Positions 18,001 to 21,000 of a stretch of DNA of 36,877 bases are shown here, one piece after another; positions within the stretch are counted from its first letter, which is position 1; every line of letters starts with the position of its first letter. Made by a program: the position numbers. Source of the DNA: a virus (taxonomy: Duplodnaviria > Heunggongvirae > Uroviricota > Caudoviricetes). Where the stretch lies: IMG/VR virus record IMGVR_UViG_2874927903_000002. One strand, written 5' to 3'.

Positions 18001-21000
18001 ACGGCTGGGACGGAAGTCGCTGTCGTTCTCAAAATCGGTGGAGCTGCATGACAAAGTCATCGGGCATTATCTGAACATAAAACACTATCAATAAGTTGGA
18101 GTCATTACCCGGTTGGGGATCACCAGCCTTGAAGAGTATGCCCGCCACTTTAACTGCGTGATACGGAATTTTTAAAAATCACTAAAGAACGCCCAAGAGC
18201 ATGTTTTTTATTTAGAAGAATCAAAGCGTTGTATTTCCATGTCATATAAAAATCGGCAAAGTTCATATGTAACAAAGTGTCCCAATCATGCCCCAAAATG
18301 CCCCACAACAAATATTTTTGCCCCATGCATGCCCCAAAAAATCACTTTCCTTCACCCTTGATACTGTTTATCCATACAGTTAAAAATGATACTGTATACA
18401 AACACAGTGTAGAGGGACTTTTATGCGTATTGAAATCTGCATAGCCAAAGAAAAAATGACTAAAATGCCAACCGGTGCTGTGGATGCGTTAAAGGAAGAA
18501 TTAACCCGACGCATCAGTAAACGTTATGACGATGTAGAGGTGATCGTAAAAGCTACCAGCAACGATGGCCTTTCTGTTACGCGCACCGCCGATAAAGATT
18601 CAGCTAAAACTTTTGTTCAGGAAACTCTGAAAGATACCTGGGAGTCTGCTGACGAGTGGTTTGTTCACTAATTAGCACGTAAAATCTGTAACGGCTGGAA
18701 ATCATTCAATACTCGCACTATCGGAAGTTCACCAGCCAGCCGCGGTACGTTCTTACATACGATGTACCGCTGTTCTCTTTACGATTTATAGCTGTACTGG
18801 TGAATTATGAGCAATCTGAATCCATGCATGACGTGTGGTGCCTGTTGTGCATTTTCCGCGTCTCTTTTTACTGGGCAGAAGCTGACGATGCTGGCGGAAA
18901 GGTTTCGGTCAGTCTCACTGAGCAAATATCTCCTTTTCATCGCTGTATGCGCGGCACCAATCAGAAAAATCCCCGATGTGGCGCTCTTGCCGGCCCCCCG
19001 GAGAAAACGCATATTGCTCTGTTTACAAAAACCGTCCACATGCAGGGAATTCGCAATGTCCGGCGAAAATAGCATCGTAAATGAAGCATGTAATCGCGCA
19101 CGGGAAAAATATGGATTTCCAAAAATCTGAATATTCTCCGCCGTGCAAAAATGCGAACAACATCACTTCACTAATCAACCTGACATGGCATACTTAGCAC
19201 GCTAACTATGATAACAAACTAATACCCTAAAACTCATGGTTCCGGGACTGGTCGTGGTCCCGTTTTTTTATTCAGCCAGCAGGCCATCCGACAACATAAC
19301 TGCGGATCGCCTTCAGGTCTGTCAGCGCCTCAACCTCGGCTTTCATCTGCAACTGCCGTGTATTAATCTCCACTCCCTTCGCAAACATCGCCTGCTCTGT
19401 CGCTTCACTCAGTGCCATCCATGATGCTGCCGTCATTGGCACATCATTATTATCAGCATCCGTCCGGAAAAATTTCTCTGGCAACTTAAAACAATATCCT
19501 ATATATCCGGCGTCTCCGGTATGTAGAACGTGAAGTTTTTAAAATTATTTATTTACCATTTAACTAATTTTTAGATCCTGGGGTACTCCCGTCTTTTTCA
19601 TTGCCTCCACGAAAGCGGAACTAACAGAACCTGACCAGTAATACTGGAACCCACTAACAACGCCCTGATAAATCATGGTTTGTGTAGCACCACCTACGTT
19701 TACGGTGATATTACCTGCTTTACCACCGGCTAAATAAACAGCAGCTGTCGGTGTAGAGTTCGTCAAAAAGTGAGAAAGTGTAACGACAGCCCCTACCAGC
19801 CTCCCTGATCCGCAGCTTGCGGCGTTTGTAATTGTACCTTTACTTTTTTCTTCTAAAGGCCAGTCAGCGCCAACTGCGCCCCAGTTATCAACCTTGTCAG
19901 AGGATTTCCATTTATAGTACTCAGTTGCAATTTTACAGCCCATAGTTCGCCCAACCATTTGGCTCATCATAAAAGGTTTACTCAGTCCCAGTTTGGTTCC
20001 GGCGGCTCCCATCCACTGCTCACCTGTTTCGCTCTTAGCCGAAGAGCCTACCCATCCCGATGTTACCCCCATCTCATCTCCCCCTTCTGAATGCGTGGGG
20101 TGAGTGTCACCCCACAATTTAAATTCAGTAGAAACCAGAAACTACAACAGCTGTCGTTTACTTCTCCCGGAGTTCTTTAATCTCATGACGAAGTGTTTTA
20201 AAGCCCTCGACTAACAATGCAATTATGCCGTTGTAGTTAAGACGCAGACGTTTTTCACCAGATATAACGTCTGCGTCTTCAGTTACCAGTTCAGGCAATG
20301 CTTTTTGTGCATCCTGAGCAATTAAACCAACCGACGTTTGCCAACCGTCGGCAGAGTACTGTATCTCGTAAAGATAACCAGTAAGTGCCTCCAGACGATC
20401 TAACGCATTATCCAGTTTTACCAGATTTCGCTTGTTGCGTTTATCCGAACGGATCTGAATATCGTTAAATGAGCCGTTTCCGGTCACCGTCAAATTGCCA
20501 TTAATACCACCATTAAAAGTTTGTGCCTGAGTCCATGTATTGGCAGTAGTAAGCAGTTCTGTTCCTTGCCCGGGGGCTCCTGTGTCTCCCTTCGGCCCCT
20601 GAGGACCCGCGGGCCCCGGTTCCCCCTTTGGCCCGGGAGGTCCCACCACGGTGGGGATTCGGTTTACGGCCTCTTCCGCCGCTATCCTGCTTTGTTCCGC
20701 TGACTGTGCGCTTTCTGTTGACTCCCGGGCTTTTTCTGTTGCGGTCGTTGCATCCCTGACTGCATTACCGGCTGCACTTTCTGCCGTCTTTTTTGACAAC
20801 TCAGCATCTGTTGCACTTTGTAATGACTCACTGGCTTTTTGAGCGGCCGCAGAGGCCGAGGACGAGGACGCCTCCTCTGACTGCTTTGCTGAGGCTGCAC
20901 TTTCTGCCGCCTGCCGGGCTGACTCCGATGCATCCCCTGCTGAAGTGTCAGCATTTGCAGCGCTCTCTTCTGCCTGACTGGCTGATATGCCGGCATTCCT

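Follow-up and report, generated by a model that had tools for sequence, protein, structure and literature searches.

The 36,877-nucleotide stretch of IMG/VR virus record IMGVR_UViG_2874927903_000002 (Caudoviricetes), analysed here over its whole length and referred to below as the window, carries a small gene for a paralogue of DinI, a protein that acts on RecA filaments, directly behind a promoter that contains two LexA boxes. The most likely reading, to which a probability of roughly 0.8 can be attached, is that this dinI unit is a self-contained, LexA-controlled phage accessory gene ("moron") located inside the yecE-side attachment site (att) of a decayed lambdoid prophage. As a phage accessory gene the unit is common and already annotated, and the conserved two-operator promoter of the prophage DinI clade to which it belongs is the sole, modest addition to known facts. 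The core of the unit consists of the following elements.

18358-18387, plus strand: predicted sigma-70-type promoter found by consensus scan (-35 TTGATA at 18358-18363, 17-nt spacer, -10 TAAAAAT at 18381-18387).
18362-18381, plus strand: LexA box 1 (distal), TACTGTTTATCCATACAGTT, score 3.34, in the promoter spacer and overlapping the end of the -35 hexamer.
18390-18409, plus strand: LexA box 2 (proximal), TACTGTATACAAACACAGTG, score 4.56, over the predicted transcription start.
18412-18417, plus strand: Shine-Dalgarno sequence GAGGGA, 5 nt 5′ of the ATG, read from the sequence.
18423-18671 (stop codon included), plus strand: dinI-like coding sequence, 82 amino acids (aa), Pfam PF06183.

A search of the window for the pattern CTGT-N8-ACAG returned exactly two matches, at 18364-18379 and 18392-18407, and the 12 bp that the initial annotation had placed between them are there (28 bp centre to centre); the dinI-like open reading frame (ORF) starts at 18423, 15 bp downstream of the second. 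The count alone is weak evidence, since two or more matches also turned up in 4 of 100 shuffles of the window. The extended 20-mers, each of which agrees with the E. coli LexA consensus TACTGTATATATATACAGTA at 16 of 20 positions and has perfect CTGT and ACAG arms, are much stronger evidence than the loose 16-mer pattern. With an approximate heterology-index matrix compiled from 29 E. coli LexA sites, box 1 scores 3.34 and box 2 scores 4.56, which places them among sulA, recA and lexA; the third-best 20-mer anywhere in the window scores 11.15. Sites scoring 5 or less were found in none of 300 dinucleotide-preserving shuffles of the window (best shuffled single site 5.85). Both sites have therefore held up under matrix scoring, and their designation as predicted high-affinity LexA operators is well supported.

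Both boxes are embedded in the promoter. Box 1 fills the spacer between the -35 and -10 elements and box 2 begins 3 nt past the -10 element, with its centre 23 nt from the ATG. As expected of a LexA regulon member, the dinI-like gene thus has operators that overlap the core promoter and the start, both of these being predicted. The equivalent stretch is annotated as a promoter in the records of phages mEp460 and VT1-Sakai. A minus-strand promoter-like match running from 18413 to 18386 was taken as chance, there being four promoter-like matches in the region against 2.7 expected.

The assignment of the gene that lies directly behind the two boxes to the DinI family, also made in the initial annotation, is confirmed by the Pfam DinI profile PF06183 (70.9 bits, with the cut-off at 24.2; E 1.1e-19; the full profile, positions 1-63 of 63) and by a phmmer search of the PDB, in which residues 1-81 of the query match residues 1-79 of the solved E. 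coli DinI chain (1GHH/7YWA; E 3.7e-13). Given this full-length sequence match to 1GHH, the predicted DinI fold of the 82-aa protein can be regarded as settled. In the cryo-EM structure of the RecA-DinI complex, L13, L21, W71, W77 and F78 of E. coli DinI form a pocket for RecA F203, and E24, E69 and D76 an acidic patch (PMC9926225). All eight contact residues are identical or conservatively replaced in the window protein, which has M, L, W, W and F in the hydrophobic pocket and E, D and E in the acidic patch.

Beyond the dinI stop codon the unit continues with a hairpin, a pseudogene and a terminator.

18742-18780, plus strand: hairpin with a 10-bp stem (18742-18751/18761-18770) and a 9-nt loop, followed by the U-rich tract TGTTCTCTTT, from a minimum-free-energy fold.
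18807-19130, plus strand: ykgJ-like (CxxCxxCC, PF03692) pseudogene, an open 107-aa ORF with its middle third out of frame.
19243-19272, plus strand: intrinsic terminator with an 8-bp G+C-rich stem and T7, from a terminator scan, conserved in O104:H4.

The hairpin, which the terminator scan overlooked because its loop exceeds 8 nt, was examined for covariation as a stated structure in six alignable alleles, an earlier set of eight regions that included divergent alleles having aligned meaninglessly. In the stem at 18742-18770, 88% of cells pair across five distinct alleles, with two compensatory pairs (G-C to A-U and U-A to C-G), and more divergent alleles have hairpins of their own past the dinI stop codon, for example GGGGAGT-N6-ACTCCCC followed by T6 in PhiR12_5. 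The hairpin and U tract are a probable partial intrinsic terminator or 3′ stabilizer of the dinI transcript. The terminator at 19243-19272 closes the dinI-ykgJ unit just ahead of the 3′ end of a convergent tail-fibre-assembly remnant.

The window copy of the ykgJ-like gene gave no Pfam match; in the alignment it lacks 1 bp near 18852 and has other indels besides, and the middle part of the gene is readable in the frame of 18800-19072. Because these compensating indels shift the middle third out of frame, the conserved cysteines have been lost. An intact homologue of 109 aa is present in E. coli KC-Dl-1 (PF03692, E 8e-11), and the dinI-ykgJ pair seems to be the ancestral cassette. Intact ykgJ-like copies are rare, and most Shiga toxin (Stx) phages retain just the first 35-50 codons.

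The nature of these downstream sequences bears on whether the dinI-like gene is merely a passenger at the front of a LexA-controlled antirepressor module, in which a small antirepressor would trigger induction. Such modules exist: in Gifsy prophages the first gene of a LexA-controlled operon is a dinI homologue, yet what the operon really delivers is an antirepressor (gftA/gfoA, with irsA next in line), and the Tum protein of coliphage 186 has a DinI-like C-terminal half (PMC3121763). In the window, however, a tblastn search with Gifsy-2 GftA and IrsA over the whole stretch gave nothing better than E ~1, and the 135-bp gap between the dinI stop codon (18671) and the ykgJ-like ATG (18807) holds no plus-strand ORF of at least 30 aa. 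The next gene is a CxxCxxCC-family pseudogene unrelated to IrsA; an equation of the two was considered and rejected, the ykgJ-like protein belonging to PF03692 and matching no Salmonella phage record, Gifsy-2 included. The locus is also at the att end and not after replication genes, as in Gifsy-2, and the protein is not a Tum-like fusion, since at 82 aa it aligns end to end with DinI. An antirepressor module is thus very unlikely here, and on these sequence comparisons largely refuted for the window locus.

Conservation of the promoter was assessed in a diversity survey in which contigs from one genome per species were scanned with a DinI alignment and the upstream regions of the resulting 80 loci were scored. 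Nearly all of these 80 Enterobacterales DinI-family genes have a LexA box just upstream, usually one. In the clade of 82-aa proteins marked by a "KEK" insertion, the arrangement TTGACA[box 1]TAAA(A/T)AT[box 2] recurs in Escherichia/Shigella, Erwinia, Mixta and two contigs with odd labels, the Erwinia and Mixta homologues having TTGACA or TTGATA as -35 and TAAA(A/T)AT as -10. The box centres lie at approximately -51 and -24 from the ATG (26-28 bp centre to centre in the relatives) while the box sequences themselves differ, e.g., CACTGTATGTATATCCAGCT and AGCTGGATATCCAACCAGTA. Of the 16 clade-member loci examined, 14 have a LexA box at the proximal position, the exceptions being two Rosenbergiella loci that have the spacer box only, and near-identical cassettes all retain both boxes irrespective of upstream context. 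Position kept without sequence being kept may be argued to reflect selection on double LexA occupancy in this clade. The distal operator is unmarked in the VT1-Sakai and mEp460 records, yet it is in register across genera, which speaks for selection in this clade of DinI proteins towards SOS control that is very tight or late.

Several of the Erwinia/Mixta two-box cassettes are also found at prophage ends, some of them right after smpB (and presumably ssrA), and others adjoin an ORF with a phage-antirepressor-like N-terminus together with an Arc-like ORF, both judged by eye. The loci concerned are L098 and L102 (Mixta, Erwinia; ~340-1500) and L099 and L105 (~1-1400).

Among phages, proteins 100% identical to the window protein are encoded by mEp460 (gp21, "RecA filament binding protein DinI"), SKA5 and PhiR55_1, and DinI proteins of many Stx1 and Stx2 phages are 92-95% identical. 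The VT1-Sakai record contains a promoter "of H0001 and H0002", a "putative SOS box" that corresponds to LexA box 2, DinI (H0001) and a ykgJ-like H0002. A 326-bp cassette was detected at no less than 80% coverage in 1,676 of 5,426 complete E. coli genomes (31%), in up to seven copies per genome annotated as "DinI-like family protein", and its matches in a scan of viral contigs were all 99-100% identical. The element being common and already annotated, its interest as such is low. The mEp460 cassette comes immediately after the int stop codon, and homology upstream of the unit among its various contexts stops at the -35 hexamer, from which it appears to behave as a portable cassette. It has the attributes of a moron, namely its own predicted promoter and terminator and a non-essential site, between tail-fibre genes and att, in varied contexts. 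The cassette is abundant in enterohaemorrhagic E. coli, Shigella-like and commensal lysogens, and its copies might alter Stx-phage induction, SOS mutagenesis or phage defence.

That the unit occupies a prophage edge, another point of the initial annotation, has also proved correct: it is flanked by the yecE att core and, from 19272 onward, by minus-strand tail-fibre genes. The features that define this edge and the integrity of the prophage are as follows.

18142-18162, no strand assigned: attachment-site core at the prophage/yecE junction, CCGCCACTTTAACTGCGTGAT, with three differences from the 21-bp duplication of Stx2_12E129_yecE.
18289-18336, plus strand: four TGCCCCA repeats starting at 18289, 18299, 18319 and 18330, within 48 bp between the att core and the promoter.
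17341-18109: insertion sequence (IS) IS1 in the yecE 5′ stub, insA at 17397-17672 and insB at 17717-18094, ~30 bp outside the att core.
35141-35909: second IS1, inverted, 91% identical to that of the yecE stub, inside the prophage tail region.
32012-33613: IS66-family element/transposase, inserted in the prophage beyond the tail module.

The 21-bp stretch is annotated as "duplication due to insertion" in the Stx2_12E129_yecE record. From the core, yecE 5′ sequence extends leftward until it is broken by IS1, and the dinI unit lies ~200 bp inside this attachment site, transcribed towards the tail-fibre genes. Four of the seven TGCCCCA occurrences in the window cluster at 18289-18336, and similar ATGCCCCAT repeats are found at the same place before dinI in VT1-Sakai, a yecE-integrated Stx2 phage and BP-4795. 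The repeats, which adjoin the dinI unit without being part of it, probably belong to the att arm as integrase arm-type sites.

Their proximity raises the question of whether the LexA sites serve mainly the att arm, LexA bound beside the integrase arm-type repeats coupling excision or integration to SOS and control of dinI being secondary. Box 1 begins ~25 bp from the last TGCCCCA repeat, and BP-4795 as well as yehV and yecE phages share the order repeats-promoter-dinI. However, mEp460 has the same two-box promoter right after the int stop codon without such repeats, the two-box promoter is found in unrelated upstream contexts in Erwinia and Mixta, and the boxes are in fixed register with the promoter hexamers (-35 and -10) and the ATG rather than with the repeats. 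A primary role in the att arm is extremely improbable on these grounds, and the boxes are better understood as operators of the dinI promoter.

To the right of the dinI unit, on the minus strand, are lambdoid late genes encoding a Gp38-like adhesin, a tail fibre, lom, J, I, K, L, M and H. Many are damaged: lom is frameshifted (21458-21739 and 21736-22047), J is split into two ORFs (24619-25587 and 22115-24766), and so is the tape-measure gene (29684-31153 and 28191-29693). With these genes split and IS elements inserted, the prophage looks defective, a decayed lambdoid element in a host that is IS-rich and in that respect Shigella-like. To the left of att are aspS, yecD broken by an IS110-family element, and the first yecE codons broken by IS1, the latter flanked at both ends by duplicated CGGTTGGG(G).

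In such surroundings the cassette could be an inert relic, neither expressed nor selected at present. The split J, lom and tape-measure genes, the IS66 and IS1 insertions, the frameshifted ykgJ-like neighbour and a truncated tail-fibre-assembly (tfa-like) gene are all in keeping with this, and the intactness of the cassette could merely reflect recent decay. Nevertheless, the cassette itself is undamaged in its promoter, both LexA boxes, Shine-Dalgarno sequence and ORF, and the protein is 100% identical to that of mEp460, which was deposited as a complete phage genome. An inert relic is, on balance, highly improbable.

The sites, scores, promoter overlap, conservation, family membership and contact residues are observed; the following account of how LexA occupies the promoter, when the promoter opens, how the protein binds RecA and what this does to the cell is inferred. 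The sigma-70 promoter would drive the 82-aa DinI paralogue. In undamaged cells LexA dimers would sit on both operators, basal expression would be very low, and it is proposed that RNA polymerase would be doubly excluded because one operator is in the -35/-10 spacer and the other is over the transcription start. DNA damage would give rise to RecA filaments, LexA would cleave itself and the promoter would open, with two strong operators probably later or at higher damage than in SOS genes with a single weak box. Prophage DinI would then add to the dose of the host's own DinI and, if it behaves as E. coli DinI does, would stabilize RecA filaments and compete for the groove with clients such as UmuD or, if abundant enough, LexA or CI-type repressors. 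The DinI site in the groove of the RecA filament is shared with LexA, UmuD and lambda CI (PMC9926225), and for this reason extra DinI could stabilize filaments or, at high dose, compete with these clients.

The initial annotation had interpreted the locus as a prophage-edge DinI gene under a double LexA operator that could tune RecA-dependent induction or the duration of SOS. The structural part of that interpretation stands, by virtue of the scores, the promoter overlap and the conservation across phages and genera; the tuning part is a reasonable inference by analogy with DinI biochemistry. Since the prophage looks defective, it probably makes little difference whether the gene tunes induction of this prophage, and the targets of any effect would be other prophages or the SOS response of the host.

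The sign of such an effect could also be inhibitory, the summed DinI blocking the RecA groove, dampening cleavage of CI-type repressors and UmuD, and limiting both the induction of co-resident prophages and SOS mutagenesis. High DinI is described as inhibiting RecA and stalling SOS in work cited in passages of PMC13192584 and PMC8456039, as many as seven cassette copies per E. coli genome could contribute, and with two strong operators expression would come late in SOS, at the stage where shut-off matters. On the other hand, DinI stabilized RecA filaments at the concentrations tested (PMC9926225), and non-polar deletion of dinI left the induction of Gifsy prophages unchanged (PMC3121763). A net inhibitory role is therefore unlikely, albeit worth entertaining; it differs from the preferred reading only in the sign of the effect, so that sequence cannot decide between the two.

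A bolder and quite doubtful proposal is that the two-operator promoter makes prophage DinI a threshold device, silent in mild SOS and firing in deep or prolonged SOS, when a burst would re-programme RecA filaments. The burst, summed over prophage copies, would benefit the lysogen or the phage in one of two ways: RecA might be held active, committing CI-type repressors to cleavage, or RecA might be stripped or occupied, making RecA-sensitive antiphage systems stronger against superinfecting phages. DinI expression enhances Zorya II protection according to a 2026 preprint (PMC13192584). If the proposal were true, what has for 25 years counted as a "hypothetical accessory gene" would turn out to be a regulator of host RecA that is encoded by prophages and has a defined role in fitness.

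Several points weigh against the LexA-controlled moron as the preferred reading. The transcription start at ~18393-18396, which box 2 covers, is a predicted one, and the scores of the two boxes, obtained with an approximate matrix, are not comparable in absolute terms with published indices. The prophage, as described above, looks defective. The Stx-phage allele combines a good proximal box (score 6-7) with a degenerate distal one (CACTGGTTATCCATACAGAT, score 9.6), and BP-4795 and Klebsiella phage P18-100 have the proximal box only, box 1 having been lost; given such loss or weakening, the double operator appears dispensable in some lineages. The BP-4795 DinI allele (248-496 of the extracted locus) moreover has W71R at a RecA contact, and with its distal LexA box lost as well this cassette may be decaying. 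As to LexA binding, expression or function of DinI from lambdoid and Stx phages, the literature yielded only annotation-level remarks and data on chromosomal dinI; for Stx phages these are just remarks that phage dinI might limit induction (PMC8456039).

Other features of the window lie outside the dinI unit. The tail-fibre region at 19272-21399 is, as judged from its sequence, a mosaic host-range module: it comprises a truncated DUF4376 tail-fibre-assembly (tfa-like) remnant (19272-19484), an ORF with the T-even Gp38 adhesin N-terminal domain (19560-20117) and, next to it, a side tail fibre (20158-21399) with a collagen-like repeat and a C-terminal Peptidase_S74 intramolecular-chaperone domain. 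On the other side of att, yecD (isochorismatase-family hydrolase) survives as an N-terminal ORF at 15247-15522 and a C-terminal ORF at 16922-17293, with the IS110-family transposase at 15724-16920, and IS1 fragments are found at 6722-7028 and 11045-11172. Two IS110-family copies of 1,527 bp (238-1764 and 7022-8548), inverted and 99.9% identical, bracket ~5.3 kb that contains a CbtA-family type IV toxin gene (2340-2714), IS2-like orfA/orfB (5437-6710) and an IS1 fragment. The layout of 238-8548 looks like a composite transposon in an apparent CP4-type island remnant.

The closest known counterparts of the window gene are the DinI genes of lambdoid and Stx phages, the latter including those integrated in yecE and yehV, with the identical gp21 of mEp460 and the 95% identical H0001 of VT1-Sakai, which share its location between tail-fibre genes and att, its promoter and the ykgJ-like remnant. 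In their records, unlike here, only one SOS box (the proximal) or only the promoter is annotated, and where the distal box is degenerate in the Stx-phage allele, both boxes are strong in the window. Relative to these phages, the window prophage is decayed and has IS1 in the adjacent yecE stub.

E. coli K-12 DinI (1GHH; 7YWA) resembles the window protein in family, length, the C-terminal WESAD(D/E)WF helix, RecA contacts and LexA control, but the two are only 47% identical, and the window protein has a two-residue insertion (KEK) and a two-residue deletion. The chromosomal E. coli dinI gene has a single LexA box. The same is true of sampled enterobacterial dinI genes of the chromosomal type, in which one box lies ~29 nt from the ATG, whereas the window gene is phage-borne and has two.

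In Salmonella, the dinI genes of Gifsy-1, -2 and -3 are likewise prophage-borne homologues directly behind a LexA box that overlaps the promoter. They are LexA-controlled and damage-induced, accumulate after mitomycin C, and have published heterology indices of 3.9-5.3 (PMC3121763; PMC8072944), so that the principle of a prophage dinI behind a LexA box has already been shown experimentally. They differ from the window gene in their 44% identity, single box and downstream gftA/gfoA and irsA, and the operon follows the replication genes, according to PMC3121763 and the Gifsy-2 map, while the window dinI is at the att end. Coliphage 186 Tum is another LexA-controlled phage gene product with a DinI-like domain (PMC3121763), although at 146 aa it joins an N-terminal antirepressor half to the DinI-like half, whereas the window protein is DinI only.

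With respect to its promoter, the window gene is comparable to multi-operator SOS promoters such as those of lexA, recN and the colicin genes, where more than one LexA box is placed over a single promoter. Multiple LexA boxes on one promoter are associated with tight repression. A Salmonella survey recorded two boxes for lexA and three for recN (PMC8072944). The window promoter is set apart from these by its 28-bp spacing, with one box in the spacer and one at the predicted start.

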